Positions 2,474-27,028 of a stretch of 64,000 nt of DNA are shown here, one piece after another. Numbering within the stretch: position 1 is the first letter of the stretch; each line of letters begins with the position of its first letter. The notes below the pieces were generated by a model. That model saw only the letters and a program-made list of their open reading frames with translations, was not told the DNA's origin and did not search any database. The position numbers and the translations under genes are program-made. The stretch is from Actinomycetes bacterium (lineage in GTDB: Bacteria > Actinomycetota > Acidimicrobiia > Acidimicrobiales > RAAP-2): contig JAJYSP010000001.1 in assembly GCA_021793515.1 (NCBI GenBank), positions 10,533 to 74,532 on the forward strand, in the 5' to 3' direction.

Positions 2474-2559
2474 CGACGAACTTCACGAAATCCTCCAGGG
2501 ACGTGCTCGATCTCACTGTCCGTCCCTGGACACTGCAGCGCCGTCCTGGCCCACCGGTA

Positions 2560-5475: not shown

Positions 5476-5479
5476 TGCC

Positions 5480-8976: not shown

Positions 8977-9004
8977 TTACGGACCGTTTTGCCCCACAAT
9001 TGAG
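8977..9004 (-). promoter_or_regulatory. sigma28-like promoter of the flbD-motAB-fliMNOPQR-flhBA unit
   Basis: Minus strand CTCAA-TTGTGGGGCAAAACG(15)-GTCCGTAA, about 20 nt before the flbD start; same motif at three other intergenic sites. Confidence 0.75.
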
Positions 9005-9053
9005 AACGCGCACCCCGAATGACGTGAACATCACATCATTCGGGGGCGCGTTC
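9004..9053 (-). terminator. Long hairpin after flgE
   Basis: 23-bp stem GAACGCGC-CCCCGAATGA-TGTGA / TCACG-TCATTCGGGG-T-GCGCGTTC with one G.U pair and one bulge, 3-nt loop; no U-tract. Confidence 0.65.
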
Positions 9054-9106
9054 GCTGCTCTAGAACGGAGTTCCCTTCGGCACACGGTGTGGGCCAAGGG
9101 AGGCGC

Positions 9107-10381
9107 CTATGGCATTTGCATCAGTGATTGCAGGACGGTGTCGGTCGTCGTGACGACCTTCGTATTCGCCTGGTAGGCCGTTTGGGCCTGGATCAGGTTC
9201 GTCAACTCCGTCGCGAGGTCGACGTTCGAGCCCATGACGGCACCACCCTGGAGCCTCGCAAACCCACTGGAGCCGGGCTGGCCATATTGGGGGTTCCCCG
9301 ACGCCACCGAAGCCGTAAAGTACGTCTGTCCCACATCATTCAAACCCTGATTGTTCGCAAAGCGCGCCAGCGCGATGGTACCGAGCACCTTGGATCCACC
9401 GTTCGAGAACGCACCGGTGATGACGCCGTCTGCCCCGATCGAATATGAGTCCAATGTCCCCGCTGCGTTGCCGTCCTGTGACGCGACGGCAACCGACGAA
9501 CTGCCAGCAAACTGCGTGACCGCCGTTGCCGAACCGACCGCCGGAAGATCGAAGGCGGGGTTCGTGCTCCCCGACCAGGTGTAGTTCGACGGGTTATTGG
9601 TGATAGCCAAACTCGTTTGACCCGTGCTGACCGCCGTTCCATTTACGGTGGACAGTTGCCCGTTACTGCCGAACACGAGGGTCTGGGGTGACGTCCACAG
9701 TGGCGATGTCGCACCCGGCACGGTTCCCTGCATCGCCCAACTCGTCGCGTTTCCGTTGGTTCCCGTGGTGGGCGTCAAGGTGAGCGTCACGGGTACCGCA
9801 GTGCCCAGCGAGTCATAGATGGTCGTCGTCAGGGTCACCGGTCCGGAAGGTGCTGCGGGAAGATTTCCCCCCAACACCACGTTCTGGGTCTGCGTAGGAG
9901 CACCAGTCGTACCCAACTGAATGGTCAAGGGCGTAGGCGGCGTCGAGGTCGGCTGGCCGGGCGTCCACCCTTGAACCAATCCCCCGCCGCTCGTGGCGAG
10001 GTGTCCGTTCGCGTCCAGCTGGAGATCGCCGTCGAGCGTATAGAACGTCTGGCCCTGTTGGCTCACGGTCAAGAAGCCATTTCCCTCGATGGCGACATTG
10101 CTCGGTACGCCGGTCTGGATGACCGAGCCAGGCGTGAAATTCAATCGGGTCGCTGAGACCTCGACGCCGGCCCCGATCGAGGAGGGATTGGTACTCGCCA
10201 ACGTCGTACCCGACGCGCCGCCCGCGGGCAGCAATTGCTCGGTCAACATGTCGGAGAACTCAACCGATGAGGACACGAAGCCATCGGTCTGTGAGTTGGC
10301 AATGTTGTTACCAATGGTGTCGAGGTAGGTCTGCATCGTGTCGATTCCCGATGCAGCGGCCCCTAGTGAACGGTTAGACAT
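9107..10381 (-). CDS. flgE: Flagellar hook protein FlgE
   Basis: LDTIGNNIANSQTDGF N-terminus, AIEGNGF, SNVDLATELTNLIQAQTAYQANTKVVTT C-terminus. Confidence 0.97.
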   Translation of the reverse strand: MSNRSLGAAASGIDTMQTYLDTIGNNIANSQTDGFVSSSVEFSDMLTEQLLPAGGASGTTLASTNPSSIGAGVEVSATRLNFTPGSVIQTGVPSNVAIEGNGFLTVSQQGQTFYTLDGDLQLDANGHLATSGGGLVQGWTPGQPTSTPPTPLTIQLGTTGAPTQTQNVVLGGNLPAAPSGPVTLTTTIYDSLGTAVPVTLTLTPTTGTNGNATSWAMQGTVPGATSPLWTSPQTLVFGSNGQLSTVNGTAVSTGQTSLAITNNPSNYTWSGSTNPAFDLPAVGSATAVTQFAGSSSVAVASQDGNAAGTLDSYSIGADGVITGAFSNGGSKVLGTIALARFANNQGLNDVGQTYFTASVASGNPQYGQPGSSGFARLQGGAVMGSNVDLATELTNLIQAQTAYQANTKVVTTTDTVLQSLMQMP

Positions 10382-10466
10382 GATGGCTCCTTTACTACGT
10401 GTTGGTGGGATGGTGATGGTGAGAAATGGTGTTTCGCTAGCCAGAGTGCTCGAGAACGTTGCCGCA

Positions 10467-10868
10467 TCAGACGCTGCCGATCTGGGTCACCGCTGATAGA
10501 TCGACGACGTCGGTTCCCAGATCCAGCGTGACGCCAGACGAGCTGTTGGTCACCCCCGTCACCTGGCCAGTGATGACACTGCCGTTGCTGTCGGTGCCCG
10601 TCACGGTCTTACCGATGAGTGACGCAGCTGAACCAATAGTGGACGAGGACGCGAGGCTCTGGAGTTGCTCGACCTGAGACAGTTGGGCGAGCTGACTCAT
10701 GAAGCTCGCCGAGTCGGTGGGGTTCATCGGGTCTTGATAACGCAACTCGGCGACGAGCAAGCTCAAGAAGGTGTTGGGTTGCAGGAGGCTTGAACCACTA
10801 AGGGACGATGCGTTGGCACCACCGATAGGGGTATTCGAGCTGTCCAACGGGCTTATGGGCATGGTCAT
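10467..10868 (-). CDS. flgD: Hook cap protein FlgD
   Basis: FLSLLVAELRYQDPMNPTDSASFMSQLAQLSQVEQL; ASLIGKTV. Confidence 0.96.
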   Translation of the reverse strand: MTMPISPLDSSNTPIGGANASSLSGSSLLQPNTFLSLLVAELRYQDPMNPTDSASFMSQLAQLSQVEQLQSLASSSTIGSAASLIGKTVTGTDSNGSVITGQVTGVTNSSSGVTLDLGTDVVDLSAVTQIGSV

Positions 10869-10983
10869 TGGTGACGCTCCTCGTTTACTTTTTTCACAAG
10901 AGAATGTGCGTGGCGGCGTGATGCACGGCGACGGTACTCCGCCATGACGGGTGCGACGCTCACCACTCGCGAGTGCGTGGTAC

Positions 10984-12315
10984 TCATAGGATCACGTGGA
11001 TCTGGCCCTCACCGGGCTCGGTCTGATTCGCGACAAACTCGCCGTTCGCGTCATCGATGAAGTCGGAGCCACGCGGGTCGCGACGCTCGTGTTGACCACG
11101 ATGCGAACCGTGATCGTGCAACGTGACGTGCACGTTCAACCCGCCCCGACCAAGTTCCGCGCGAAGCGTTTCAAGCTCGTGACCAAGGATTTCATGAGCC
11201 TGACGCGACTCCGGGGAAATGTTCACGTGCAGGTCATTGCCGACGAGTGACACCGTCGCACGCACGGGTCCCAAGGTCTCTGGGTGAAGCGAGAGTGAGA
11301 CCCGGTAGTCCCCGTCTGCGCTCGCCATACGCGACACGTCATCGACGAAACGACGTACGTCGAGTGACCCAGCAGGCGCGACGCGTGCGTGCATGGGAAT
11401 TCCCGCAGATGGCACGACAGTCGCAACCGCACGCGTCTGGTCTGGCGCGGCGGCCCACATCAACGTCGGTGCAGCCGAGTCCGTACGTATCGCATCGCGC
11501 CCGATCGAACGCGGTGGGACCGAGTCTCGACGAGCGCTCGCGCCAGATCGGTCCACTACTCGCGATGCCGTCGGGTGGGGGGAAGACACCGCTGGTGGAG
11601 CCTGGGTCGTACGTCGCGAGTCAACGACGGACCGAGCGGGATGGGACGTGGGCACGGGACTAAGCGGGGTACGCACGCGCAACGGCGCGTCAGGCCGCGT
11701 CGACACGGCCCCCGCGTCGGTCGGGCTGATCGACGCAGGTCGACCAACTCGGCTCTCCCATCGCGCCGTCGTCGTGGCACGCTCGGACGAGACGGCTTCA
11801 CGTGCTGTCGCCTGGCGGGCGACCTCAGATTCGATTACTACCGGCTTGGAGCCACTGACCTCAGGCGTTGCGGCCGTGGAACCGGGCCGCGCCGATGAAC
11901 CAGTTTGGCTATCGCCGCGCCGAACCGCTGATGCACTGCCGCCGTTGTTGACGAGGGACTCGACCTCGGGAGCGCTAGACGATACCGAGACCTTCGGCGC
12001 GATTGGAACACGTGACTCGACCGGCAGCACTGGCGCCACGACGGGCGCCACCAGTGACCGCACCTCGCCACCTTTTAGTGCTCGGAGCTCCGTGCGCAGC
12101 CGCCCGGTCTTCCGTCCCTTCGCCGGCGACGCTGCGTCACTGGGACGATGTTCACTCGTCCCCGAGTGACTCGCGGTCACCTTGGCGGCACCTAACACCT
12201 CACCGAAGGTTCGCGTCGGAGTCGTCGCGGCATCGCGCGTTGGTGCAACCGACGGGCTCGGAACCTTCGCATTGGGCACCGACGATCGACCGGGTGGGCT
12301 AATGGCCGCGTTCAT
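10984..12315 (-). CDS. fliK: Hook-length control protein FliK (start re-called at ATG 12315 after GGAG)
   Basis: Long Pro/Ser/Ala/Arg-rich region followed by T3S4 domain LSLHPETLGPVRATVSL..LHVNI..LETLRAELGRGGLNV. Confidence 0.88.
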   Translation of the reverse strand: MNAAISPPGRSSVPNAKVPSPSVAPTRDAATTPTRTFGEVLGAAKVTASHSGTSEHRPSDAASPAKGRKTGRLRTELRALKGGEVRSLVAPVVAPVLPVESRVPIAPKVSVSSSAPEVESLVNNGGSASAVRRGDSQTGSSARPGSTAATPEVSGSKPVVIESEVARQATAREAVSSERATTTARWESRVGRPASISPTDAGAVSTRPDAPLRVRTPLSPVPTSHPARSVVDSRRTTQAPPAVSSPHPTASRVVDRSGASARRDSVPPRSIGRDAIRTDSAAPTLMWAAAPDQTRAVATVVPSAGIPMHARVAPAGSLDVRRFVDDVSRMASADGDYRVSLSLHPETLGPVRATVSLVGNDLHVNISPESRQAHEILGHELETLRAELGRGGLNVHVTLHDHGSHRGQHERRDPRGSDFIDDANGEFVANQTEPGEGQIHVIL

Positions 12316-12379
12316 CGGTGCCATCTCCAAACTCGCAGTTTCGACCTCGCTGCACGAGCCGCCAGATGGGAGCGCATTC

Positions 12380-13147
12380 TCATGAACCCGCGATTCGGCG
12401 TATTGCCACGATGGCACCGGCATTGAGAATTGGTTCAATCCGTACGACGGCACCGGTGTAGGGCGCGTCGATCATCTGATCGCCGCCAACGTAGATGGCG
12501 ACGTGCCCGGGTGAACTCGCCGTCCCATCAGAGCCCGCGAAGAAGAGGAGATCCCCGGGTCGCGCGTCCGCGAGCGACGTCACCGGCTGTCCAACCACGG
12601 CCTGCTCCTCGCTCGTACGTGGCAGTTGAACGCCCAGGCGAGCGAAGACATACTGAACGAATCCCGAGCAGTCAAAGCCCGCGGGGGTTGTCCCTCCCCA
12701 CACGTAGGGCGTCCCGAGATACTGCTCCGCCGTCTTCACGATGCTCGAGTCAGTACCGGCCAGCACCGTTGGCGACGTCGGCTGTGACGGCGACGCCGAG
12801 ACAGCGACCGACGTCGCGGGCGACGGACTGGCGTGCGGGCTCAACGATGGCCCGGAGTTGGAGGTCACCACTGTGGTGGGACTGGGCGACGCAGACGGCA
12901 CGGCTATGCCCGCAGGCACGAATCCCGATCCAATTGATGACGTCGGACCTTCGTAGCCGACGAACAGTCCTAGACCGTCGGTCGAAGCGGACGCGGTCGT
13001 CGGCGACGGGCTCGGTACGGCGAAGTTGTCAAGGAGCGTTGCGAAGGTTGTGTCAGTCGCCGGTCCCGCGGCGTAGGTCGACGCTGTTGAGACGGCAACG
13101 GCGTCGCCCGAAGTCACAGGTGCGATTCCCACCGAGGAAACGTTCAC
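12380..13147 (-). CDS. NlpC/P60 peptidoglycan hydrolase within the flagellar operon
   Basis: YLGTPYVWGG..FDCSGFVQYVF, RTSEEQ, GHVAIY; Ser/Thr/Pro-rich N-terminus; between fliJ and fliK. Confidence 0.9.
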   Translation of the reverse strand: MNVSSVGIAPVTSGDAVAVSTASTYAAGPATDTTFATLLDNFAVPSPSPTTASASTDGLGLFVGYEGPTSSIGSGFVPAGIAVPSASPSPTTVVTSNSGPSLSPHASPSPATSVAVSASPSQPTSPTVLAGTDSSIVKTAEQYLGTPYVWGGTTPAGFDCSGFVQYVFARLGVQLPRTSEEQAVVGQPVTSLADARPGDLLFFAGSDGTASSPGHVAIYVGGDQMIDAPYTGAVVRIEPILNAGAIVAIRRIAGS

Positions 13148-13581
13148 GATCGCACCCGATCTCTCGCATATCGGGCATTGGTGAGGTCATCGAGCTCCGC
13201 GGCCTCCTCGCGCTGAACGCTCGCTCGCCACCTCGCCGCTCCATCGGCGTCGAGGCGCGACAGCACTTCGAATCGTTTACGCGCCTGATGCCACGATGCG
13301 GTGACCTCATCACGGTGCGTCGCGGCGAGGAGTAGCTCTTTGGCACTCTCGTGCAACGCATCACCGAGACGCGTCGCTTGATCGTGCATCCAACGGACAC
13401 TTTCGATTGGCGTTGAGTCCTGTGGACCCGGATACGACGTTAGGGCGTCGTGCGCCGACCGATAGTTCCCTTGCGCTTGTCGCAGGGCTCGTTGCGCGAT
13501 AAAGAGTCGTTCGCGAGCGAGTCGCTCCTCGAGGTTACGAATCCGCATCACGGTCGCGAGTGAGAATTGACGGGCCCTCAC
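13144..13581 (-). CDS. fliJ: Flagellar export chaperone FliJ
   Basis: FSLATVMRIRNLEE N-terminus, coiled coil, EEAAELDD C-terminus; follows fliI. Confidence 0.88.
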   Translation of the reverse strand: MRARQFSLATVMRIRNLEERLARERLFIAQRALRQAQGNYRSAHDALTSYPGPQDSTPIESVRWMHDQATRLGDALHESAKELLLAATHRDEVTASWHQARKRFEVLSRLDADGAARWRASVQREEAAELDDLTNARYARDRVRS

Positions 13582-14894
13582 GCTGCCCCCATCGTTGGGA
13601 GGAACTTGAGGAGTTCGCGGCGCGCCGATGGAAGATCGGTGACGTCGTTGATGGCCTGTCGACAGTACGCGTCAATATCGCTCTTGAGAGCGATTGCCCG
13701 GTCGATGGTCGGATTGGTTCCGGCGACGTACGCGTCGATCTCAATGAGGTCTTTCGCGTCACGCCACGCCGCCAACAGTTCGCGAACCACACCGCCAGCG
13801 CGCAACTGTTCGGGCTCCGCCACCATCGGCGCTACTCGTGAGATCGATCCCAGCACGTCGACCGCGGGAAAGTGATTCGATTCGGCCAGGGATCGCGACA
13901 ACTGTATGTGGCCGTCGAGTATGGAGCGTGCCGTGTCGGCGATTGGTTCGTTCATATCGTCACCTTCGACGAGCACCGTGTAGAGACCGGTGATCGAACC
14001 GCGTTCGCTCCGTCCCGTTCGCTCCAGTAGTCGCGGCAGCAGGCCGAAGACGCTCGGTGGGTAACCCCTCGTCGCCGGCGGCTCGCCCGCCGCCAAGCCC
14101 ACCTCACGCTGGGCCATGGCGAATCGGGTAATCGAGTCCATCATGAGAACCACGTCGTTGCCCTCATCGCGAAACCACTCGGCGATTCGTGTCGCGGTAA
14201 ACGCTGCACGGATGCGCATCATCGCCGGCGCGTCCGAGGTTGCGACGATCACCACCGAGCGGGCCAAGCCGTCGGGCCCCAAGTCCCGTTCGATGAACTC
14301 GGCCACTTCGCGACCGCGCTCGCCGATGAGCGCCACAATCGACACGTCGGCCGACGTGCCGCGAGCGATCATGGACATCAACGAGGACTTGCCAACTCCT
14401 GATCCAGCGAAGATTCCGAGTCGCTGACCTTTGCCACACGGAATCAGTCCGTCAAGAACACGCACGCCGAGGGGAAGCTGCTCGTTCACCATGCCACGAC
14501 GAAGCGGATGCGGCGCTAGCCCTCCGATCGACACGTCGATCCCGCCGATTGGTCCTCGTCCGTCCAAGGGTTGACCAGTTCCGTCTAGTACCCGACCGAG
14601 TAACTCCTCACCGACGCGAATCGGAAGCGGCCCACCGAGTTCCAGCACAGGCGTTCCCGAACGCACGCCGTTGGTCTCGGCCAGCGCGAGACACACCACA
14701 CGGTCTTCGCGAAGCGCGACTACCTCGGCCGGGATGGCCTCGTCACCGACCATGAGAATCAAGCCGTCACCGATGGCGGCGGTAATGCCGGCCACTTCGA
14801 TCGACATGCCGACCATCGTGGTCACTCGACCGTAGCGCCGGGTTCGCGCCGCGAGCATGGCTGGGCGACGCAGTTCGTCAAGCAGCCCGGTCAT
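13578..14894 (-). CDS. fliI: Flagellar export ATPase FliI
   Basis: GIFAGSGVGKS Walker A, IGERGREV, MMDSITRFAMAQREVGLAAGEPPATRGYPPSVF, LDGHIQLSR. Confidence 0.98.
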   Translation of the reverse strand: MTGLLDELRRPAMLAARTRRYGRVTTMVGMSIEVAGITAAIGDGLILMVGDEAIPAEVVALREDRVVCLALAETNGVRSGTPVLELGGPLPIRVGEELLGRVLDGTGQPLDGRGPIGGIDVSIGGLAPHPLRRGMVNEQLPLGVRVLDGLIPCGKGQRLGIFAGSGVGKSSLMSMIARGTSADVSIVALIGERGREVAEFIERDLGPDGLARSVVIVATSDAPAMMRIRAAFTATRIAEWFRDEGNDVVLMMDSITRFAMAQREVGLAAGEPPATRGYPPSVFGLLPRLLERTGRSERGSITGLYTVLVEGDDMNEPIADTARSILDGHIQLSRSLAESNHFPAVDVLGSISRVAPMVAEPEQLRAGGVVRELLAAWRDAKDLIEIDAYVAGTNPTIDRAIALKSDIDAYCRQAINDVTDLPSARRELLKFLPTMGAA

Positions 14895-15547
14895 CGGTCA
14901 TCCTCCGTCGCCACGGCACCGATCAGGACTTCTCTGACTCTCTCGAGTGCTGTGGTGATGCGACCATCGAGGGTCGTGTGACCCGTCTCAACGAGGACGC
15001 CGCCCACCTCAATTGCCTCGTCGGCGACGAAGGTGAAGGCTCGACCCTTCGTAACATCACCCACGTCACCTAAGTTCTCGAGATCGGACGGGTTCAATCG
15101 CACCGTCGCCGATTGCACGTCGTCGCTTGACTTGAGCGCGCGCTGCAGCGCGTCGCGTCCCGGGTTGTCGTTGAGACGCAACTCATAACCGAGGATCTCG
15201 GTGACTAACGCCATGACAAGCTCCGGTACGTGACGCTCGAACTCATCGTTCAGCGCCAGACGTACATCGCGCAGTTCACTAGCCGCCTTATTCAACAGCG
15301 CAGCCGACCCACGCATTCGCTCGTCTAGTTCTCGACGGAGCTGCTCGATCGCGGCTTGACTTTCAGCGAGACCACGCTCGTACCCTTCGTCATAGCCTTC
15401 GCGCTCCGCGACCGCACGATCAGTGACGACTACCTCCGTTGGCCGCTCGTGGTTGGTGTACGTCGTGGCTACGGACATGGCGTGACTCAGACGACGCAGT
15501 TCGCGCGTCGGCTCACTGAGCGGGTGCGACGGACGATCGCGTGTCAC
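14891..15547 (-). CDS. fliH: Flagellar assembly protein FliH
   Basis: EGYDEGYERG GxxxG repeats; VRLNPSD; GGVLVET..LDGRI. Confidence 0.92.
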   Translation of the reverse strand: MTRDRPSHPLSEPTRELRRLSHAMSVATTYTNHERPTEVVVTDRAVAEREGYDEGYERGLAESQAAIEQLRRELDERMRGSAALLNKAASELRDVRLALNDEFERHVPELVMALVTEILGYELRLNDNPGRDALQRALKSSDDVQSATVRLNPSDLENLGDVGDVTKGRAFTFVADEAIEVGGVLVETGHTTLDGRITTALERVREVLIGAVATEDDR

Positions 15548-16632
15548 AACACCACCTCATCGTCGCGTGCAATGACAATGACACCGTCGGCGTCAAGTTG
15601 GCGCGCTGCCCGAACGATCGTCGTCTGAGCGGTGTTGATCTGCGTTGCGCGCACCGCTCCCATCACATCGATCTCTTCGTCGATCATGGTGTTCACTCGT
15701 TCGGAGAGGTTGGCGCGAATCCGCGCAATCGTGTCGGCGCTCAGGCGGGGGTCCTTCATCGCGAGCGCCAACGTAGGAACGTCGACTTTGCGGAAGATCT
15801 GCTGCAGGGCCTTCTCGTCAAGCTTGAGGACGTCGTCGAACGTGAACAGTTTCGCGCGAATCTGTTCGGCGAGCGCCTGATCTTCGGCCTCGAGCTCACT
15901 AAGGATTTGTTGTTCGATCGTGCGATCCGAGTGATTCAAGATCTCAGCAATTGTCGTTGTTCCGCCCGCCACGGTTGTCGAGCCACCACTTTGGACACCG
16001 CGGAGCTTCTCGGCGAACAGCGACGTCGCCTGACGGATAGCCACCGGGTCGACGCGGGTCAGTTGAGCAATCCGCTTGGCCACTTTGACCCGAAAGTCGG
16101 GTTCCAGCACGCCCAAGAGGTTCGCCGCGTCTTCGGGGGGTAAGTAGGCCAAGAGCACGGCCACGACTTGGGGCTGCTGGTCCCCCAGTATCGAGAGGGC
16201 CTGCTGAGGGTCAATGCGCAAGAGACCAGAAAGCGGACTCGCTGCGCGCTGCCCTTCGATTTGATCGAGAACCTCCTGAGCGCGCGTCTGTCCGAGCCGC
16301 TCTTGGAGAAACGCGCGAGCGAGTTCCATGCCGCCTTCGCCCATCACATCCGAGCGGTCGACTCGGTCCATGAACTCCGCTAACACCTCGCTGACTACTG
16401 CGGGCGAAAACCGTGGGAGGCCCACGATCTCTTTGGAGATGCTTATCGCCTCCGCGTCACTCATCTCCTTGAGAATCGGCGCGGCTCGCTGGGCACCGAG
16501 GTGCGCGAGCAGAATCGCAATCTTCTGACGTCCAGTCAGCTGCAGCTGTGGGCGCCCTCCGTACGGTTCAGTGGTCGTCGAGGGGTTCTCGTTCTCGCTC
16601 GTCCACGCCTTCTGCTCGGAGAGATTGGTCAC
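15544..16632 (-). CDS. fliG: Rotor protein FliG (start re-called at GTG 16632, GTGA overlap with fliF)
   Basis: LTGRQKIAILL, GGMELARAFL..LG, EHPQ-like QQPQVVAVLL, GGTTTIAEILN, LFTFDDV, NLSER. Confidence 0.96.
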   Translation of the reverse strand: MTNLSEQKAWTSENENPSTTTEPYGGRPQLQLTGRQKIAILLAHLGAQRAAPILKEMSDAEAISISKEIVGLPRFSPAVVSEVLAEFMDRVDRSDVMGEGGMELARAFLQERLGQTRAQEVLDQIEGQRAASPLSGLLRIDPQQALSILGDQQPQVVAVLLAYLPPEDAANLLGVLEPDFRVKVAKRIAQLTRVDPVAIRQATSLFAEKLRGVQSGGSTTVAGGTTTIAEILNHSDRTIEQQILSELEAEDQALAEQIRAKLFTFDDVLKLDEKALQQIFRKVDVPTLALAMKDPRLSADTIARIRANLSERVNTMIDEEIDVMGAVRATQINTAQTTIVRAARQLDADGVIVIARDDEVVL

Positions 16633-18218: not shown

Positions 18219-18221
18219 GGG

Positions 18222-18964: not shown

Positions 18965-18972
18965 GACAACTC

Positions 18973-19311: not shown

Positions 19312-19382
19312 GACCGAACTCCTCGCTCAGCTAAGTGCAAACCATCCTGGCCCTATAGCGAGCGATCCCTGCTCACCAGAGA

Positions 19383-19410
19383 TAACGGACCGGCACTCCT
19401 CAGAGTTGAG
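19383..19410 (-). promoter_or_regulatory. sigma28-like promoter of the flgB operon
   Basis: CTCAA-CTCTGAGGAGTGCCG(15)-GTCCGTTA, about 70 nt upstream of flgB. Confidence 0.72.
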
Positions 19411-19468
19411 AGGTCCGCACGAAGATTTCGGTGTCAGCATTCACCTGGTCACACGGCCACCGATTTCG

Positions 19469-22400
19469 TCAGACCTCGTTGAAGCTCGCGCCAATTCGTG
19501 CCATGACCTCAAGGAGGCGGTGCTGACTCGTGTGTTGACACGCCTCCACCGATATCGGGGCGACGTCGCGAACACCCTGGTTCCCCAGTCGGTTCAACAG
19601 ATCACGGTCGTTCACGGCACGCAGCATCGCACGCACCAAGTCGTCCTCGTGAACGTCGCGCCATAGCGACTCACTAAAGACACCTGATCCCGCGACCACG
19701 CGCGCGGGACTCGGTGACGTGGCAAGAAGGATTGAGTTCTGCTCCGTGCAGAAGTCACGGTGTCCCCCCACGTCGGGGCAGATGGTCGCGAGTCCGTGGG
19801 CTAGGGCCTCTAGGAACGGCAAGCCGTATCCCTCGCCTCGCGTCGCCAGGACGAACGCGTCGCTCGCTAGATAGAGCTGGGTCAATGTTTCGCGTGAGAC
19901 GTGTTCGGTGTAGACCCTCAAGCGACCCCGTACCAAAGCGAGTTGCGTCGGCGATAGCGTGGCGTGCAACCACGTCTCAAAGTCAGCGGGTGTGACACCG
20001 CTCAACTTCAACGTCAGGTCGCAGTTCGGCTCATGCGCGGCCACCGCAGCGAACGCTCGAAGCAATGCTTCAGGATTCTTACGCGGCTCAAAGTGAAAGA
20101 CCGACAGAAAGGTAAAACGTCCCCGAGGGACCCGTAGTCGAGCATCGAGCACGGCCTCGACGTCAACCACGGGGGTGCCGGGTGCCACCGTGTAGACCTT
20201 GGTCGCCGAAATCCCTGAGTCGACCAGTATTTGAGCGTCGTAACTCGAGAAACACCACACCTCATCGAACGCTCGAAGTGACATCTGAAACTCGTAAGGC
20301 AACGGTGTGGCCTCGAACGTCGTTCGGGCCACGCGATACTTGGCGCGAACGGATGTCGAGACCGTCGAGAGCCAACCCACCGGCACGTCCACTACCGCTA
20401 CGTCCAAGTTCGCATCGCGAAGCGAGCGCCACGGTAGTGCGTCGCCAGGAGTATCCAAATCGGGTGATGTCGAAACGTCCACTCGCAACACGTCGACACC
20501 GCGCTGCGCCAGGTAGTCGACATCGAAGAGGGTTCGTGAAGCGTGTGCGAAGCCGGAGGTTCCACTGAGTATTCCCAACTGGCCCACCAACGGAGCGAGT
20601 GATGTTGGCCGACGCGGTGTCGGCAATGTTCGCGGCCGCGCAATTCGTCGGCCCACGGCGATGACGTCCAAGGGGGCAATGTCGCGCACGGGACCACACG
20701 CCCCCTCAACGGGTACGAAGCCCGACTTTGACAGCATGGCCTTGAGAAGTCGGACTGGGTATGGCCGAATGTGCGTCGAATCCAGCCAGAAGTTTTCGAG
20801 GCCAACGCCTGGGGCGGAGAAATCTGGCGTCTGGATTATGACGACACCGTGATCGGCCACGTGATCGAAAATCCACTCGAGGAGTGTCTGGAACTCACTC
20901 GGATGGAGATGCTCGACAATGTGGCCGATGAACACACCGTCGAATGGCTCGGGCTCAATTGACGCCAGATCATTGGGTATGAACCCTTCATACACGGTGA
21001 ATCCGTCAGCCCGCAGCGCTTGGACCAGGGCCGGGTCCGCTTCGATCCCTTGAACTCGCTTGCCTGACGCGCGACAGACTCGCAGCATCGATCCCTGACC
21101 ACAGGCAATGTCGAGAATGGAGTCGCACGCACCCAGGTAGCCCGCGAGTCGCGTTGCGATGTCGTAGGTGGCGTGATCGCCGCCTTCAAAGTCATGGGCG
21201 TAGGCGAAGTAACCCGCACGCTCGTACTGTGCCGACGCGATCTGGGATCGATAGGGTCCCGCAGACCACACATCCGGTACTGACTCGGTGATCTGCGAGA
21301 GACGCTCTCGAACTGCTGAGAGCTCGCCGCGCTCTCGAACTCCGATTCGTGATTCGACCTGTGTCGCCAAGTCAAGGGCGCTCGCCACGTCGCCCACGGC
21401 AACCAGCCGTGACAACAACGTCGCCGTTTCACCAGGCGAATCGTGGAGCGACGACGCGAGGTCAGTGGTGAGTCGGGACAGTTCGTCCGTTGGCTCGCGA
21501 CCTGAAACGAGGGACTCAAGGGACTCGTGGGCTAGGTCGCCCACATGGTTCCAGCCGAGCGAAGACGCTCGCTCCTTCGCCGCTCGCGACAGTGCGGTCA
21601 GATCGACCTCACCATCAACCACTTCCTTCAGGATTCGACCTAACTCATCGACCGAAGGTTCATACCAGTAACTTCGATCTGCCAGGATCGATTCGCCTAC
21701 TCGAGGCGACTCACCGACGGCGAACGTAGCCGGGATGAGGAGCGATTCGTTCGCACCACAAAACTCATTGGTGGCGCCGCCGCGTGTGTGGATCACGGGC
21801 GTGCCCACCGCCATGGCTTCGAGTACACCGAGGCCGAAACCCTCGGAGCGGTAGGGGTGCACGAGGACATCTGATTCGGCAATGCGATGCAGAAGATCCG
21901 CTCGGCTCAGGTATCGGGCCTCTACCGACACGCGCGACGCCACTCGCTGGTGTTGGTCGAGCGACTGAGCGAGGAGGGACTGATTCTGATAGAAGGTGTC
22001 AGCGCCGACCTCCTTGATGGTCAACTGCGTACGTGCGAGCGTGGCGTCATCAAGTTGGTCGAGGGCGGCGATCAGGACGTCGACGCCCTTTCGCATAATC
22101 GTGCCGCCGAGGAAGAGCAGACGCGTGACATCCCTTGACTGACGTACCGTATGACGCGGCACCTCGGCGTCGACGCCATTGGGCACCACCCACACCTTTG
22201 ACGCCTCGACGCCAGCCTGGAGATACCCGCGTTTGCAGTACTGACTTGGCACCCATATCGCGTCGGCGTCGCGTACACCTGCGATCCACGACAGCGGAAT
22301 GGATCCGAACTCCCAGGGCTGGATGATGACGAGGCGCTCTCCCCCACGGTGCCCCCAGACCGGGGGCCACATCTGACGAATCCGAACGTCAACCGAGCCG

Positions 22401-22588
22401 TCGGGTTCACCCACCTCCACCCTCGAGTCCGTCCGCGCTGCCACTAACTGCGCGAGTTCTCGATCGGATAGGTCGAATCCCACCACCGAGACGTTGTGTC
22501 CTCGTTGTGCGAGCTCTTCGGCGATGTGGTGATTCACGATGCCGTAGCTTCCAGCGAGTGAGAGGTTCCCCTCGACGACTATCCTCAC
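19469..22588 (-). CDS. Trimodular GT4-methyltransferase-GT4 protein (start re-called at GTG 22588 after GGAGGAGG; 1039 aa)
   Basis: GT-B domain 1 (PWEFG..DAIWVPS..VPNGVD..RKGVD..YRSEGFGLGVLEAMA), SAM motif ILDIACGQG with HIVEHL, GT-B domain 2 (RKNPEALLRAF..TRGEGYGLPFLEA). Confidence 0.88.
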   Translation of the reverse strand: MRIVVEGNLSLAGSYGIVNHHIAEELAQRGHNVSVVGFDLSDRELAQLVAARTDSRVEVGEPDGSVDVRIRQMWPPVWGHRGGERLVIIQPWEFGSIPLSWIAGVRDADAIWVPSQYCKRGYLQAGVEASKVWVVPNGVDAEVPRHTVRQSRDVTRLLFLGGTIMRKGVDVLIAALDQLDDATLARTQLTIKEVGADTFYQNQSLLAQSLDQHQRVASRVSVEARYLSRADLLHRIAESDVLVHPYRSEGFGLGVLEAMAVGTPVIHTRGGATNEFCGANESLLIPATFAVGESPRVGESILADRSYWYEPSVDELGRILKEVVDGEVDLTALSRAAKERASSLGWNHVGDLAHESLESLVSGREPTDELSRLTTDLASSLHDSPGETATLLSRLVAVGDVASALDLATQVESRIGVRERGELSAVRERLSQITESVPDVWSAGPYRSQIASAQYERAGYFAYAHDFEGGDHATYDIATRLAGYLGACDSILDIACGQGSMLRVCRASGKRVQGIEADPALVQALRADGFTVYEGFIPNDLASIEPEPFDGVFIGHIVEHLHPSEFQTLLEWIFDHVADHGVVIIQTPDFSAPGVGLENFWLDSTHIRPYPVRLLKAMLSKSGFVPVEGACGPVRDIAPLDVIAVGRRIARPRTLPTPRRPTSLAPLVGQLGILSGTSGFAHASRTLFDVDYLAQRGVDVLRVDVSTSPDLDTPGDALPWRSLRDANLDVAVVDVPVGWLSTVSTSVRAKYRVARTTFEATPLPYEFQMSLRAFDEVWCFSSYDAQILVDSGISATKVYTVAPGTPVVDVEAVLDARLRVPRGRFTFLSVFHFEPRKNPEALLRAFAAVAAHEPNCDLTLKLSGVTPADFETWLHATLSPTQLALVRGRLRVYTEHVSRETLTQLYLASDAFVLATRGEGYGLPFLEALAHGLATICPDVGGHRDFCTEQNSILLATSPSPARVVAGSGVFSESLWRDVHEDDLVRAMLRAVNDRDLLNRLGNQGVRDVAPISVEACQHTSQHRLLEVMARIGASFNEV

Positions 22589-22695
22589 TGGTCCTCCTCC
22601 GTGGCGACCAACCCGCTCGGACGCCGACACCGCGTGATTCACCGTCGCGACGTCTAGCTCATGTGCTCGATGGACGAATCGCTCGCCGACAGTAT

Positions 22696-22723
22696 TTACG
22701 GTCCGGCACTGAGTGCAATTGAG
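22696..22723 (-). promoter_or_regulatory. sigma28-like promoter of the GT4-MT-GT4 gene
   Basis: CTCAA-TTGCACTCAGTGCCG(15)-GACCGTAA, about 105 nt upstream of the GTG start. Confidence 0.7.
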
Positions 22724-22763
22724 GTGTCGCCTTGGAGACTGTCGTGAGGAATGACTCCGCGAC

Positions 22764-23048
22764 TTACAGGTCAGTTTCGACGTACGCCGACGAGCGACGA
22801 CCGTGCGGGCTCGGTGGGTGGGCGGAGGACCGTTTGGACAGTTCGACCATATGTTCGCTGACGGCCACCATGAGCCGTTCGCACTCCTCGTGTAGTGCCG
22901 CAACACGCCCGACACAGTCTTCAGGCACCACATCAAGCGGACGGTCTGGTATTGGGGGTACCGAGGAGAACCCCACCGCCAAAGCCCGTCGAATCGCGTC
23001 GAGGTAGGCGGTGAGGCCGTCTAGGTACTCAGGCCATGAACGAGCCAT
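22764..23048 (-). CDS. Small helical protein, FliT-like by position
   Basis: 94 aa MARSWPEYLDGLTAYLDAIRRAL..; directly after fliS, predicted helical. Confidence 0.55.
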   Translation of the reverse strand: MARSWPEYLDGLTAYLDAIRRALAVGFSSVPPIPDRPLDVVPEDCVGRVAALHEECERLMVAVSEHMVELSKRSSAHPPSPHGRRSSAYVETDL

Positions 23049-23430
23049 CACCACTGCGCTCGTTTGCACCGACTGCTCCGACCCACGCCTCGTGTATCGG
23101 TGTGAAGAGGTCTATACACTCGCGCAGCACCTCGACACTCTTCTCCAGATTTGCCTTGATCAAGTGATGCTCGATGAAGACGTAGACCGACATGAGCTCG
23201 TGGCCGCCTCGGAAGCCGTCTGGATCCAGGGCGTTACGCAACATTCGAATCAATCGTTGCGCGTGCTGAAGATTGTCATTTGCCACGGCGTAATCCCGCG
23301 CCTCGATGGCGACCTCGGCCCTCGCCATATCCGCCGTGAGCCGATCACAGATCATGAGCAGGAGCCGTGGACCATCGGCGGTGCTCACCGCCTGGTCTTG
23401 GTAGGCGGATGCGGGATTGCGGATTGACAT
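23029..23430 (-). CDS. fliS: Flagellin chaperone FliS
   Basis: AYQDQAVSTADGPRLLLMICD; NLQHAQRLI..L..ALD; LMSVYVF; IHEAW. Confidence 0.93.
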   Translation of the reverse strand: MSIRNPASAYQDQAVSTADGPRLLLMICDRLTADMARAEVAIEARDYAVANDNLQHAQRLIRMLRNALDPDGFRGGHELMSVYVFIEHHLIKANLEKSVEVLRECIDLFTPIHEAWVGAVGANERSGDGSFMA

Positions 23431-23442
23431 GGTCTCGACCAC

Positions 23443-25959
23443 CTAACTCGTACTCAGCGTCGAACCGGTATTGAAGAGCGACGAACTTGAAGTCGAAGAC
23501 GAAGCCGACGACGCGAGAAATTTACTCACCGAACTCAACTGCGCGAGTTCGGTCTCCATGGCATTGAACTCCTGGGTCAGCATCGCCCGCTGGGTCGTCA
23601 CGAGCTGATTCTGCAACGCAATTTCACCGGTGACGTTGGTCAAGGTGCTGTTCAGTCCACTCGTCGCCGTGGCGATCTGCCCGCCTGGCGCGAGTGTCGA
23701 TTGAACGGCCAAGCTCGCGAGGCCCTGCGCTATTCCGGGAGAGTAATCGACGGTCCCAATGGTGGTTGCAGTGCTGATTCCTGGCGTCGTAACCAAGAGC
23801 GAGAGCCCATTGGCGGCGTTCGCGGGGTTGTTCAGCGTCAGTGTCTGACCCAAACCCGTCGCCGCCACACCATTGATGGTGCCAACGACATCGGCACCAG
23901 TGAAACTTGTCCCCGATGAAGTCAGGCCCAGTTGGTCGGTTCCCGACGCGCCCACGCTGAACGAGGCGGCCGAGCCATAGTTGGCTGAACCGAGTTGTAC
24001 CGCGTAACCCCCCGACACGGCGGTCGTTGAAGCTGAGACAGTGATACCGGCCGCCGCGAGCGAAGCGTTCAAGCCCGACACGACTGCGGCCACCGTCTCG
24101 CCCGCGTTGGCCGTGTAGCTGGCGGTTGCACCACCCGAGGTGATGGTGTAACTCTCGCTCGACGCCAGCGTCGACGTCGGTGCCGCAAACACGGCGGAAC
24201 CCGTGTCAATGGCTTGACTCGCCGACTTACTCACCGAGACGCCATAACTGCCCGTGGTCGTCGAGTCAGTTGCGCCAGTAATCGCGACCTGTCCAGTGAA
24301 CCCAGAACTTGACGGTGAAAACGTTCCACCTACGGTAAACAGCGACTGAACTGCGTGAGGATTGGCGTCGTAGGCCGTGATGAACGCATTCTGGTTGAAT
24401 GCAATGGTCCCCGTCGAGGTAATCGAGAGACCCGCCGACTCACCTGCGGTTCCATCGGACCCCGCGGCCGACGTTCCGACGGCGTACCCCACAATGGCGA
24501 GGACGCGTTGGGCCAGTGAGTTCAAGGATGACTGCCCGTTCAGTGGAGCGGCGACTCCGGTCGACGAGTTGTACGCCGTATCAGTGGAAATCTCCGACAA
24601 GACTTTGTTGGCCGCGTCGACGAGTGTCGATACCTGGCCCGCAATCGTCGAGCCGTCAGCAGCTACGTTCAGGGTCACCGGAGTCGCGCTGACTTGAGTC
24701 AGATTGGCGGTGACGCCCGGTAAGAGTCCCCCAACCGAATTGGTCGACGAAACGACTTCGGGTCCGCCCACGCCACCAACTGACACGATCGAATCCTGTG
24801 CGGCGGTGGTCAGTTGCATCGCCCCGAGCGACGATGTCGCGAATGCCTGCGTATCGATGGTTGCGGCGCCAGAGAGACCGGTCTTGTTGGACGTCACCTC
24901 CAACGCATACGTGTTCGTGCTCGTCTGCAGCGCCGTCGCGGTCACGCCCGCGTTCGCTCCGTTGATGGCGCTGACCACCGAAGCGAGAGAGCCATTGCCA
25001 ACCGACACGTTCTGAGCGGTCATCGTCCCCAACGTGAGTGGGCCCGCCAGATTCGCGGTCAACGTACCACCGCTGCCCGACGTCAACGTCACTTGCGTCG
25101 TGCCGGAAGCGGCAATGTTCGAAACTGTCGTGGCAGTTCCGTCAACAGTGATCACACCGTCGGTACCAGTGACGACACCACTCGTGGCCATGCCGAGGGC
25201 GGTGAGCGCCGTGCCTCCGGTCAACTGCATCGAAGCAGTCGAGCCCTGTTGATCGGTCGCGAGCGAGATATTCCCGCCGGCACCGATTGTCGCACTCAGC
25301 GTGCCACCCGACGCTTGGGTGATCGCCTGCACGAGTTGGGTAGGCGTATACGTCCCTGATGCGATGACGACCGTCGACGCGGTCCCACCAATCGTGACGT
25401 TCAGGGTGTCGTTGCTCGACGAGATGGTCGTACTCGCAGCCGGCGGTGTCGATGCCAGGACCGTGGCACCGGACGATGCCTGCGTGACTTGAATCGAGTG
25501 CGCACCGAGGGACAGCCCGGACTGGCCCGCGAAGGAGTCGATCCCGAGGGCTGCGCCTCCGGATCCAATGAGGTAATCACCCGACGCGACAACGTCACTG
25601 GTGGCTGAGACGGTTCCGGCCGAAATTTGCGTCGAACCTGTCGCCAATTGATCGACGGCCATCGTGATCGAGCCGGGTTCACTGCCCGATGTGATTGTTC
25701 CGGTGGCCACGCCCGAATTCGAGGACGTTACCGAATAGGCCTGATCGAACGCCATTGAGGTCGAGAGGGCATCGCCGGCTTGTTGGAGCGCGAGCAAGTC
25801 GGAGTTGATTGCTTGATAGTCGGAGATTTGCGTATTGAGTGTGGTCTGTTGAAGCTGCAATGCGGCGAGGGGCTGTTCGAATATCGCCATCTCGGCGTTG
25901 ATGATCTGATTGGTGTTGATGCCGGACTGCAGTCCACCGAAACTGACGGGGCTCGACAT
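23443..25959 (-). CDS. fliD: Filament cap FliD (838 aa; start re-called at ATG 25959)
   Basis: FGGLQSGINTNQIINAEM N-terminus, VDQLAT, AQDS..V..SSTNSV..LLPGVT, MLTQEFNAMETELAQL C-terminus. Confidence 0.93.
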   Translation of the reverse strand: MSSPVSFGGLQSGINTNQIINAEMAIFEQPLAALQLQQTTLNTQISDYQAINSDLLALQQAGDALSTSMAFDQAYSVTSSNSGVATGTITSGSEPGSITMAVDQLATGSTQISAGTVSATSDVVASGDYLIGSGGAALGIDSFAGQSGLSLGAHSIQVTQASSGATVLASTPPAASTTISSSNDTLNVTIGGTASTVVIASGTYTPTQLVQAITQASGGTLSATIGAGGNISLATDQQGSTASMQLTGGTALTALGMATSGVVTGTDGVITVDGTATTVSNIAASGTTQVTLTSGSGGTLTANLAGPLTLGTMTAQNVSVGNGSLASVVSAINGANAGVTATALQTSTNTYALEVTSNKTGLSGAATIDTQAFATSSLGAMQLTTAAQDSIVSVGGVGGPEVVSSTNSVGGLLPGVTANLTQVSATPVTLNVAADGSTIAGQVSTLVDAANKVLSEISTDTAYNSSTGVAAPLNGQSSLNSLAQRVLAIVGYAVGTSAAGSDGTAGESAGLSITSTGTIAFNQNAFITAYDANPHAVQSLFTVGGTFSPSSSGFTGQVAITGATDSTTTGSYGVSVSKSASQAIDTGSAVFAAPTSTLASSESYTITSGGATASYTANAGETVAAVVSGLNASLAAAGITVSASTTAVSGGYAVQLGSANYGSAASFSVGASGTDQLGLTSSGTSFTGADVVGTINGVAATGLGQTLTLNNPANAANGLSLLVTTPGISTATTIGTVDYSPGIAQGLASLAVQSTLAPGGQIATATSGLNSTLTNVTGEIALQNQLVTTQRAMLTQEFNAMETELAQLSSVSKFLASSASSSTSSSSLFNTGSTLSTS

Positions 25960-26056
25960 GAGAATGCTCCACTTCGAACTGGGAGTACGTCGACCAACGG
26001 CACACTCCACGTACGAGACGCACGTCGCACGCGACGCAGTCGCCTCACTCGTGAAT

Positions 26057-26095
26057 CCCGGCACTCTCCGGGGACAAACCCCGGAGAGTGCCGGG
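26057..26095 (-). terminator. Hairpin immediately after the fliC stop
   Basis: Perfect 17-bp stem CCCGGCACTCTCCGGGG / CCCCGGAGAGTGCCGGG with 5-nt loop; no U-tract. Confidence 0.8.
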
Positions 26096-26100
26096 CGGGA

Positions 26101-26937
26101 TTACTGCAACAGCTTTTGGGCCAGGCTCGGAAGGTGCTGCGCCTGGTACAAGACGGACACGCCAGACTGCTCAAGAATCTGCAGCGACGCGAACTGCGTG
26201 GTTGCCGCCGCAACGTTAACGTCGACCAAGTTGGCGTGTGCGGCCTGAATGTTCTCCTGGGCCGTCGTCAAGTTCGCCGACAGTGACGTCATCTGGTTCT
26301 GAGTCGCACCAACGTTGGCCGCCTGCAACGCCACCGTGGAGATGGCCGCCTGGACGGCGGTCATCGCGGCCTCGGCCGCACCGACGGTCCCGATGCTGAC
26401 CGCAGCGCTACCCACACCGAGGGCTGACGAGCTCGACGCTGCGATGGTGATGACAATCTGGTCGCTGGCCTGGTTGTACGGTCCGACCTGGAAGGTCTGA
26501 CCCGAGTACGAGCCGTTGAGTAGGGACGTCCCACCGAAGTTCGTACTCGCCGCGATCTGGTCGAGTTCGTTCTGGAGTGAGCTGAACTCGGACTGCGACG
26601 CTTGCAGCGTCGTTGAGGTCTGAGTTCCACCGTTCGCTACCTGCGTGGCCAGGGTGTTCATGGTCTGCAGGATCGATGCCTCTTGACCCAACGCGCCCTG
26701 CGCGGTTTGGAGCACTGAAACAGCGCTCTGCACGTTGCTGATTGCCTGGGTGTAGCCGTTGCCTTCCTCTTGCAGATACTGGCCGATGACGTACCCTGCC
26801 GGGTTGTCGGCGGCCGTTTGAATCTGGAATCCCGAAGACAGCTGGCTCACAACCGATGACAAGGCCGTATTAGTCGTGTCGAGGTTGTTATACGAGTTCA
26901 CTGCAGACGAGTTGTAATTGATATCGATTCCCGACAT
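26101..26937 (-). CDS. fliC: Flagellin (minimal, 278 aa)
   Basis: INYN..A; LSSGFQIQTAADNPAG; NAVSVLQTAQGAL-type block; TNFGGTSLLNGS; FQVG; LGA.QNR-equivalent VGATQNQ; QILEQSGVSVL; SD AGGAGG. Confidence 0.96.
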   Translation of the reverse strand: MSGIDINYNSSAVNSYNNLDTTNTALSSVVSQLSSGFQIQTAADNPAGYVIGQYLQEEGNGYTQAISNVQSAVSVLQTAQGALGQEASILQTMNTLATQVANGGTQTSTTLQASQSEFSSLQNELDQIAASTNFGGTSLLNGSYSGQTFQVGPYNQASDQIVITIAASSSSALGVGSAAVSIGTVGAAEAAMTAVQAAISTVALQAANVGATQNQMTSLSANLTTAQENIQAAHANLVDVNVAAATTQFASLQILEQSGVSVLYQAQHLPSLAQKLLQ

Positions 26938-26977
26938 GGGATCTGTCCTCCTGTTGACGTTCCCCCTCGCGAGGGCT

Positions 26978-26991
26978 GAGCATCCTTGCTC
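26978..26991 (-). promoter_or_regulatory. CsrA-type GGA hairpin in the fliC leader
   Basis: GAGCA-AGGA-TGCTC: 5-bp stem with AGGA loop, matching CARGGAUG; further GGA motifs in the SD (ACAGGAGGA). Confidence 0.65.
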
Positions 26992-27000
26992 ACCAGTGAC

Positions 27001-27028
27001 TTACGGACCTACGAACGCGAGAGTTGAG
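27001..27028 (-). promoter_or_regulatory. sigma28-like promoter of fliC
   Basis: CTCAA-CTCTCGCGTTCGTAG(15)-GTCCGTAA, about 63 nt upstream of fliC. Confidence 0.8.

Follow-up and report, generated by a model that had tools for sequence, protein, structure and literature searches.

Sigma-28 promoters are treated as being among the most conserved classes of bacterial promoters. In E. coli and P. aeruginosa, the sigma-28 factor FliA (PDB 6PMI/6PMJ and 9WSM) serves late genes only, is held by FlgM and acts on promoters with the -10 box GCCGATAA, in which C-13 and G-12 are critical duplex contacts and A-11 is flipped onto a conserved Tyr (PMC12784957; bioRxiv 10.1101/2020.01.02.893370). WhiG of Streptomyces venezuelae (PDB 6PFJ/6PFV), a member of the actinobacterial sigma-28 lineage, directs sporulation genes via canonical promoters; RsiG, together with cyclic di-GMP, sequesters it. 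In Actinoplanes missouriensis the WhiG1-clade factors FliA1, FliA2 and FliA3 form a one-tier system, the same sigma-28-type promoter standing before early and late operons; the Actinomycetota WhiG consensus is xT(C/A)Ax at -35 and GCCGA at -10, and a phylum-wide study found WhiG1 and WhiG2 with conserved DNA-contact residues and similar promoters, Acidimicrobiia being unmentioned in its main text (PMC13595943, PMC13689560). Here we describe the flagellar island of an Acidimicrobiales bacterium, the promoter-like motif that recurs in it and the sigma factor encoded beside it. The window, that is the whole 64,000 bp stretch of DNA analysed, spans positions 10533-74532 of the organism's own contig (C27) in an assembly of 2.38 Mb (43 contigs, 97.7% complete); L-numbers denote related loci, G-numbers genomes and P-numbers listed relatives of the sigma factor.

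It is likely, in our assessment, that a divergent FliA/WhiG-like sigma factor drives a one-tier flagellar regulon in this organism via promoters with a CGTA core, its specificity for the -10 box being shifted. In the proposed scheme, a housekeeping-type promoter, TTGa-N17-TGTGTAG(A/T)AT, would lead to transcription of a variant group-3 sigma factor, which would in turn recruit RNA polymerase at six CTCAAYT-N11-kGnnm-CGTA(A/G) promoters, located before fliC, GT4, flgB, flbD, flhA and flgN-flgK. Relative to the canonical -10 sequence (G-15 C-14 C-13 G-12 A-11 T A A), the distance from CG to the -35 box would be kept and A-11 replaced by T or, equivalently, the A moved one base downstream. Matching changes in the sigma factor would lie at or beside its DNA contacts, namely in the loop of the -11 pocket, in the motif RIQGA, in D(I/F)LPKR(M/L)R (at the Arg reading the extended -10) and in region 4.2. 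A FliA/WhiG-family factor with shifted specificity had already been postulated in a first-pass annotation of the window; a divergent sigma of this kind is indeed encoded beside csrA-fliW, and the comparisons below support the assignment.

Predicted flagellar promoters with a CGTA core

The window has four matches to the pattern CTCAA-N15-GWCCGTWA, each of them on the minus strand (8977, 19383, 22696 and 27001), and there are none in 100 dinucleotide-preserving shuffles. Across the whole assembly the strict pattern again has four matches, exactly those in the window, so the prospect raised in the first-pass annotation, that the motif might be equally common genome-wide, does not hold, while the four intergenic coding-strand copies which it reported were all found where it had placed them. 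P_fliC (CTCAACT-N-GGTCCGTAA, 27001-27028, minus strand), an exact match, lies in the gap from the GT2 stop (27055) to the fliC start (26937) and would drive fliC-fliD-fliS. P_GT4 (CTCAATT-N-GGACCGTAA, 22696-22723, minus strand), predicted to drive a GT4-methyltransferase-GT4 gene, is located past the fliS stop (23029) and ahead of the likely GT4 start, a GTG near 22642; it is intergenic only if GT4 starts at this GTG, the first in-frame start past the motif, and the mechanical open reading frame (ORF) extends over the motif to 22936. P_flgB (CTCAACT-N-GGTCCGTTA, 19383-19410, minus strand) follows the GT4-methyltransferase-GT4 stop (19469) and precedes the flgB start (19311), in a position to drive flgB-flgC-fliE-fliF-fliG-fliH-fliI-fliJ-NlpC/P60-fliK-flgD-flgE. 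Finally, P_flbD (CTCAATT-N-GGTCCGTAA, 8977-9004, minus strand) separates the flgE stop (9107) from the flbD start (8955) and would serve flbD-motA-motB-fliM-fliN-fliO-fliP-fliQ-fliR-flhB. Pfam assigned the genes downstream of these four sites as FlbD, FlgB, the GT4-methyltransferase-GT4 fusion and flagellin.

Two further sites emerged from a relaxed scan: CTCAACTTTGGTGGTGGATGGGACGTAG at window positions 2587-2560, before flhA, and CTCAACTTTGCTCGCTCGCGAGTCGTTA at C27:9558-9531, before a flgN-like gene. The former (2560-2587, minus strand) can be written as CTCAACTTT-N-GGGACGTAG, with boxes CTCAACTTT...GGACGTAG; the latter (C27:9531-9558) lies ~1 kb outside the window and precedes flgN-flgK-flgL-fliW-csrA. 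A loose mismatch scan returned 150 matches, was uninformative and was replaced by a weight matrix built from 28 sites of other genomes only, the own genome being excluded. When 4.76 million positions were scored in this genome-wide scan, a check that the first-pass annotation had proposed, the island sites took ranks 1-6 with 34.5 (flhA), 26.9 (P_flgB), 20.7 (P_fliC), 20.5, 19.3 (P_flbD) and 18.4 bits (P_GT4), the site before flgN being among these first six and the next best position reaching 12.7 bits. Given this clear gap, the regulon seems limited to the flagellar island in this genome. The earlier count of four was therefore correct for the strict pattern and too low as a total. Of the island operons, only GT2 and the sigma gene are without a matrix site.

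The last three bases of the flhA -10 box, GGGACGTAG, are the stop codon TAG of flhB, so that promoter and coding sequence overlap here; the L075 counterpart of this promoter is intergenic. The GTG of flgN, which has no Shine-Dalgarno sequence, follows the box by exactly 9 nt in both the own genome and L075, a spacing that hints at a leaderless transcript, as it would fit a start 11 nt downstream of the A in CGTA. The canonical pattern TAAA-N14-16-GCCGATAA had no match in this genome. Sigma-70-type promoters and intrinsic terminators were not enriched, and the intergenic regions of the sites had no sigma-70-like consensus and no intrinsic terminator in the scan.

The nearest flagellar clusters to this island come from uncultured Acidimicrobiales genomes. 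Regions of 140 nt before fliC, flgB and flbD were inspected in 20 related loci, of which the nine closest (L006-L014) encode FlgC 57-76% identical to the own protein. In L006-L014, L074 and L075 the boxes are kept before orthologous fliC, flgB, flbD, flhA and flgN, and the spacer varies freely. Ten genomes of Acidimicrobiales relatives have the motif at orthologous operons. Sites orthologous to P_fliC occur in L006, L007, L009, L010, L011 and L074, those orthologous to P_flgB in L006-L014 and L074, and those orthologous to P_flbD in L006, L007, L009 and L011; the flhA and flgN sites have counterparts in L075, and a site comparable to P_GT4 follows fliS in L006 and L009. L074 stands apart in two respects: its subgroup has CTGAA in place of CTCAA as the -35 box, and its flgB promoter together with a GGA-hairpin leader is duplicated almost exactly (5371-5520 and 4152-4300, minus strand) before an unannotated 216-aa ORF upstream of flgB.

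The 28 sites from other genomes give the consensus cc-CT(C>G)AA(C/T)T-N11-(T/G)G(G/A)(G/T)(C/A)-CGTA(G/A). Their -35 box is CTCAA in 23 cases, CTGAA in four and CTAAA in one, followed by C (16), T (11) or G (1). Most were gathered with CT[CA]A[AC]-N18-CGT, and the four L074 sites with CTGAA-N18-CGTA(A/G), which fixes A +26 and the purine at +27; among positions outside the search pattern, T +6 was conserved in 28/28 sites, G +19 in 27/28 and A +26 in 23/28. The base after the CG of the -10 box is T in 34/34 sites (six own and 28 others), then A in 23/28 and A/G in 27/28 of the others. The 8-mer GWCCGTWA with which the motif was originally described hence captured the -10 box but over-specified it: the conserved core is CGTA(A/G) with a near-invariant G four bases upstream, and the -35 box is best written CTCAAYT, giving CTCAAYT-N11-kGnnm-CGTA(A/G) overall.

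More distant Acidimicrobiales (L016, L018 and L023-L025) carry CT(A/C)AAG-N16-(G/C)CCGATA, again ahead of the conserved leaders of flgB and fliC, in the form of CTCAAG-N16-GCCGATAG in L016, CTAAAG-N16-GCCGATAC in L018 and L025, and CTAAAG-N16-CCCGATAA in L023 and L024. L019-L022 have GGTCGAA(A)GAT at the promoter place, with CGA still kept. The spacing from T(A/C)AA to CG is 18 nt in the variant and canonical promoter classes alike, from which it follows that the CG pair has not moved and that A has given way to T immediately after it. All 34 CGTA sites have the layout expected of sigma-28 promoters, i.e. two boxes with a spacer of 15-16 nt, on the coding strand, before flagellar genes. Taken together with this placement, their conservation and their replacement by canonical promoters in relatives, the sigma-28-type geometry recognised at first pass is well founded. 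Less so the suggestion that TCAA is an unusual -35 box, since T(A/C)AA falls within the actinobacterial xT(C/A)Ax, the CTGAA subgroup excepted, and the published consensus already permits TCA (PMC13595943). The novelty thus sits in the -10 box, which had correctly been called non-canonical: the A after CG is lost (CGATAA to CGTAR), and the canonical arrangement of C-13, G-12 and a flipped A-11 was found only in relatives with a canonical sigma factor. The variant box would either place T at -11 or shift the flipped A one base downstream.

A variant sigma factor linked to the promoter class

The candidate reader of these sites is encoded at C27:5048-5833, 5 kb past the window start and on the strand opposite to the flagellar genes, where it adjoins csrA-fliW-flgL-flgK; the gene occupies the same or a fliC-adjacent place in L075 and L074. 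The island holds no other sigma gene and the genome no second FliA-like sigma, although three short sigma-like genes occur elsewhere in it. The product (261 aa) has the group-3 architecture of sigma2, sigma3 and sigma4 domains: phmmer aligned residues 19-258 to WhiG 6PFJ (E 5.7e-39) and residues 28-257 to P. aeruginosa FliA, its best solved relatives being WhiG, the highest-scoring structure with 137 bits, and FliA. Homologues show Sigma70_r2, r4 and a faint r3. FliA_WhiG was the best NCBIfam family, yet the protein scored 167.2 bits against a cut-off of 189.6 for TIGR02479 and 164.5 bits against a cut-off of 343 for the WhiG equivalog NF004935, missing both.

Orthologues taken from the genomes of the related loci fall into two groups, one 58-75% and the other 27-38% identical to the own sigma. 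Scores in the first (variant) group range over 158-172 bits for TIGR02479 and 157-172 bits for NF004935, compared with 265-272 and 352-362 bits for the canonical Acidimicrobiales sigmas, which pass the WhiG equivalog cut-off where the variant does not. In regions 2.3-3.0 the variant group reads F(A/S)TYAT-RIQGA--DE-R(R/K)DD(I/F)LPKR(M/L)R, the canonical group FETYA--RI(R/K)GAIIDELRAIDWVPRSVR, with RI(R/K)GA and DWVPRSVR; in other words, RIRGA and DWxPRSVR of FliA/WhiG have become RIQGA and D(I/F)LPKR(M/L)R. The loop of the -11 pocket is G(F/Y)QF(A/S)TY as opposed to x(V/I)KFETY in the canonical group, and region 4.2 reads DRSRVTQL(I/V) as opposed to TESRVCQIH. Inspection of the sigma regions, another check suggested at first pass, has therefore revealed clade-specific substitutions in 2.3/2.4, 3.0 and 4.2. 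A database search recovered 175 relatives at E<=1e-20, 120 of them listed as 90%-identity clusters, and the variant signature was present in >110 of these 120.

Contact residues were placed by ungapped sequence alignment to P. aeruginosa FliA using the contact list of PMC12784957. By this alignment only, Y76, R80, D87, S224 and Q228 of P. aeruginosa are kept as Y94, R98, D105, S239 and Q243, while R97 corresponds to K115, R82 to Q100, the Trp to Ile/Phe and E74 to Ser/Ala. In P. aeruginosa FliA, R97 reads guanines of the extended -10 and R80 contacts -12G (PMC12784957). The own system is comparable to E. coli and P. aeruginosa FliA in its group-3 factor, full-length alignment, bipartite promoter, similar spacer, retained CG and, as aligned, equivalents of these five residues. 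It differs from them in that the sigma is predicted to drive all operons, in T for A-11, in Lys for the extended -10 Arg and in that no FlgM was detected (no Pfam match in the genome at E<=0.1). With A. missouriensis it shares the TCAA-type -35 box, the linkage of the sigma gene to the flagellar cluster and the one-tier arrangement, and it departs from that organism and from the WhiG consensus in having CGTA(A/G) rather than GCCGA(TAA) at -10 and a sigma below the cut-offs that lacks RIRGA and DWxPRSVR. S. venezuelae WhiG, its best-scoring solved relative, belongs to the same actinobacterial sigma-28 lineage and has a different regulon. We infer that the variant sigma binds the CGTA sites, that the residues named above cause the shift and that transcripts start 6-8 nt past the -10 box.

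The variant sigma is encoded in every genome that has CGTA sites (for G046 the copy counted is one split over two reading frames), and canonical sigmas in those with CGA sites, so that sigma group matches promoter class without exception. Four genomes, G045-G048, encode a variant and a canonical sigma together. The canonical pattern CT(C/A)AA-N16-18-CCGATA has 6, 10 and 5 matches in G046, G047 and G048, compared with 0, 1 and 1 for the reversed control, and is not enriched in G045 (11 compared with 14). These CCGATA sites, partly common to G047 and G048, are followed in G046-G048 by first reading frames whose products include EAL-domain, PilM-like and OmpR-type response-regulator proteins as well as PAS and membrane sensors (assigned by eye from translations rather than by hidden Markov models), the same kind of regulon as that predicted for WhiG across Actinomycetota (PMC13595943). 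The flagellar clusters of the dual-sigma genomes carry CGTA sites. It thus seems that one cell can harbour two sigma-28-type regulons whose -10 cores differ, which suggests that the -10 shift may insulate one from the other.

Among genomes of the genus, intact and closely similar copies of the sigma were found only alongside FliI: in the own genome, which has FlgC and FliI, in G063 (= G044, the genome of L010; FliI present, sigma 75% identical) and in G064 (FliI present, 71% identical). An initial view of the genus as wholly without flagella is wrong, since G063 and G064 have both sigma and FliI. Among G001-G024, FlgC is absent from 24/24 genomes and the variant sigma from 22/24. The two exceptions have no flagellar ATPase: G012 has a variant sigma split over two reading frames (G012:C2:129375-130108) in a genome without flagellar genes, which may be left over from a flagellar island since lost or may reflect faulty assembly, and G006 has a 55%-identical sub-branch copy (RIRGA...LPKRSR) adjoining AAA ATPase genes. 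The latter belongs to a non-flagellar sub-branch (P0084, P0090 and P0094) with the motif RIRGA...VLPKRSR; the P0094 gene (L073 10001-10792, on the complete 2.97 Mb contig of G006) lies beside AAA-ATPase genes and large unannotated ORFs, with no flagellar genes, and this sub-branch of the variant sigma appears to have been recruited to a non-flagellar role. As for the island, most species of the genus lack it, so it is either repeatedly lost or mobile, and the distribution indicates that sigma and island are inherited or lost as one.

Other readings of the sites

The strongest competing explanation, which we nevertheless regard as unlikely, is that these are ordinary sigma-28 promoters, weak or relaxed, read by a drifted sigma that still prefers GCCGATAA. 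Retention of the C and G that are critical in E. coli sigma-28 promoters (bioRxiv 10.1101/2020.01.02.893370), of the R80, D87 and Y76 equivalents and of a -35 box inside the known actinobacterial range would all agree with it. Drift with an unchanged preference is difficult to reconcile, however, with the lack of A after CG in all 34 sites (0/34), with the consistent change of the pocket loop and the extended -10 Arg in >110 of the 120 listed clusters, or with the dual-sigma genomes, in which canonical sites stand at other genes and CGTA at the flagellar ones. In addition, pattern-free inspection of 140 nt in front of each of fliC, flgB and flbD in L006-L014 revealed no CCGATA box at the promoter position.

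Still less probable is reading by another sigma factor, most likely one of the extracytoplasmic function (ECF) type. The B. subtilis ECF factor SigW has the promoter TGAAAC-N16-CGTA. The arrangement T(C/G)AAC-N17-CGTA does resemble ECF promoters (AAC-N16-17-CGT): ECF -10 boxes typically have the core CGT(A), an AAC-containing -35 stands at ~17 nt in part of the sites, with AAC in 16/28 of the relatives' sites and CTGAAC/CTGAAT in the L074 subgroup, and the three short sigma-like genes elsewhere in the genome could be invoked as readers. ECF promoters would nonetheless call for a conserved AAC and a nearby two-domain ECF sigma, and neither was found: 11/28 sites have AAT, none of the loci examined has an ECF gene within or next to its flagellar island, and the own candidate reader is a three-domain group-3 protein. 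The -35 box is CTCAAYT, whose invariant T (+6) after the variable base is no ECF feature. It is the variant FliA-like gene that travels with the cluster, and in relatives the corresponding positions are taken by sigma-28 promoters of the canonical type. That the bipartite motif is instead the operator of a DNA-binding regulator, with the true promoters elsewhere in the intergenic regions, is very improbable, as nothing speaks for it directly beyond the general point that an operator role is conceivable for any conserved motif upstream of a gene, while the boxes are neither palindromic nor repeated, their spacing is fixed at a promoter-like length across an unconserved spacer, the short intergenic regions offer no alternative sigma-70-like promoter, and the flgN box 9 nt before its GTG in two genomes fits a leaderless start.

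Several observations nonetheless weigh against a re-specified sigma-28 factor as the reader of the CGTA sites. The variant sigma is below the curated FliA/WhiG cut-offs and is not clearly nested in the canonical clade of a small tree, so its origin in that family is putative; this tree, built by maximum likelihood, separates variant from canonical sigmas as two clades on long branches and, being midpoint-rooted, does not place the variant clade securely relative to outgroups. All variant genomes belong to one clade, which makes the association of sigma and promoter class essentially one event, a correlation rather than a set of independent trials. The collection patterns fixed certain positions, and invariance at these is partly by construction. 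Lastly, the fliC promoter of L012 is a hybrid, CTAAAG ... GGCCGTAA. On balance, the sequence comparisons support a system of the sigma-28 type whose -10 box has been re-specified.

Upstream control, leaders and layout of the flagellar island

Upstream of the variant sigma gene (C27:4800-5047), five genomes (the own and those of L043-L046) share TTG(A/C)-N17-TGTGTAG(A/T)AT, a housekeeping-type promoter with an extended -10. The matrix scan identified no CGTA-type site before the gene; a housekeeping-type promoter in place of a CGTA box implies that the sigma would not be autoregulated.

A second layer of control may act on the 5' leaders. The fliC leader (26938-27000, minus strand) has a CsrA-type site pair, consisting of the hairpin GAGCA-AGGA-UGCUC and a GGA-containing Shine-Dalgarno region; it is kept in L006-L012 and L074, and the hairpin appears in both the minimum free energy and the centroid fold. 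The flgB leader (19312-19382, minus strand) contains GAGCA-GGGA-UCGCUC and GGCCAGGAUGG motifs that are conserved in all Acidimicrobiales loci examined, the ones with canonical promoters included. Across the leaders of fliC, flgB and flhA (2474-2559, minus strand), GGA-loop hairpins such as GAGCA-AGGA-UGCUC, GGCCAGGAYGG and GUCC-AGGGAC-GGAC recur. With fliW and csrA present, these hairpins lead us to suspect CsrA control, which looks as if it would reach from flagellin to the early operons. Rfam gave no match at E<=1 in window positions 1-32000, which puts the conserved leaders outside any described RNA family.

The island reads on the minus strand through GT2 (30495-27055), fliC-fliD-fliS (26937-23029), GT4-methyltransferase-GT4 (~22642-19469), flgB through flgE (19311-9107), flbD through flhB (8955-2560) and flhA (2473-368), and continues on the same strand beyond the window start with one gene without assignment, the flgN-like gene, flgK, flgL, fliW (C27:6138-6602) and csrA (C27:5881-6135). 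The G+C content is 60-63% in the flagellar part (window 1-32000) and 66-70% in 32001-64000. Inside the flgB operon, between fliJ and fliK, a 255-aa NlpC/P60 peptidoglycan hydrolase (12380-13147, minus strand) is kept in all related clusters and probably substitutes for a FlgJ-type rod-assembly hydrolase. Between the flgE stop and P_flbD, a perfect 10-bp inverted repeat read off the sequence (CCCCGAATGA...TCATTCGGGG, 9013-9045, minus strand) is possibly a terminator parting the two operons; a T-run is absent, and a simple terminator scan did not list it. Divergent from GT2 lies a 176-aa ORF (30586-31116, plus strand) with homologues adjoining the flagellar cluster in L011, L012 and L074, for which phmmer against PDB and Pfam gave nothing significant.

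A broader proposal, which we put forward more tentatively, is that the whole sigma subfamily (at least 110 clusters, so far in Acidimicrobiales-type genomes) has a re-specified -10, with a pyrimidine in place of the flipped A-11 or a one-base shift in melting. It would then combine an ECF-like CGT core with a three-domain sigma, and would form with its promoters an orthogonal pair that coexists with canonical WhiG without cross-talk and moves or is lost with the island as a self-contained unit.

These findings bear on sigma specificity, on flagellar regulation in Actinomycetota and on regulon prediction. The phylum-wide Actinomycetota study searched with GCCGA and found that both WhiG clades read similar promoters; such searches would be blind to a clade with another -10 core and altered contact residues, whose flagellar regulons would be missed. 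Genomes with two sigma-28 types and two promoter types offer a natural experiment on specificity with a short list of candidate residues, and an orthogonal sigma/promoter pair could be useful for synthetic circuits in high-GC hosts. For the organism and its genus, most species of which are non-flagellated, a one-tier self-contained regulon, running from a housekeeping promoter through the sigma to six operons with CsrA/FliW acting on the leaders, may help to explain the gain and loss of the flagellar island as a unit.

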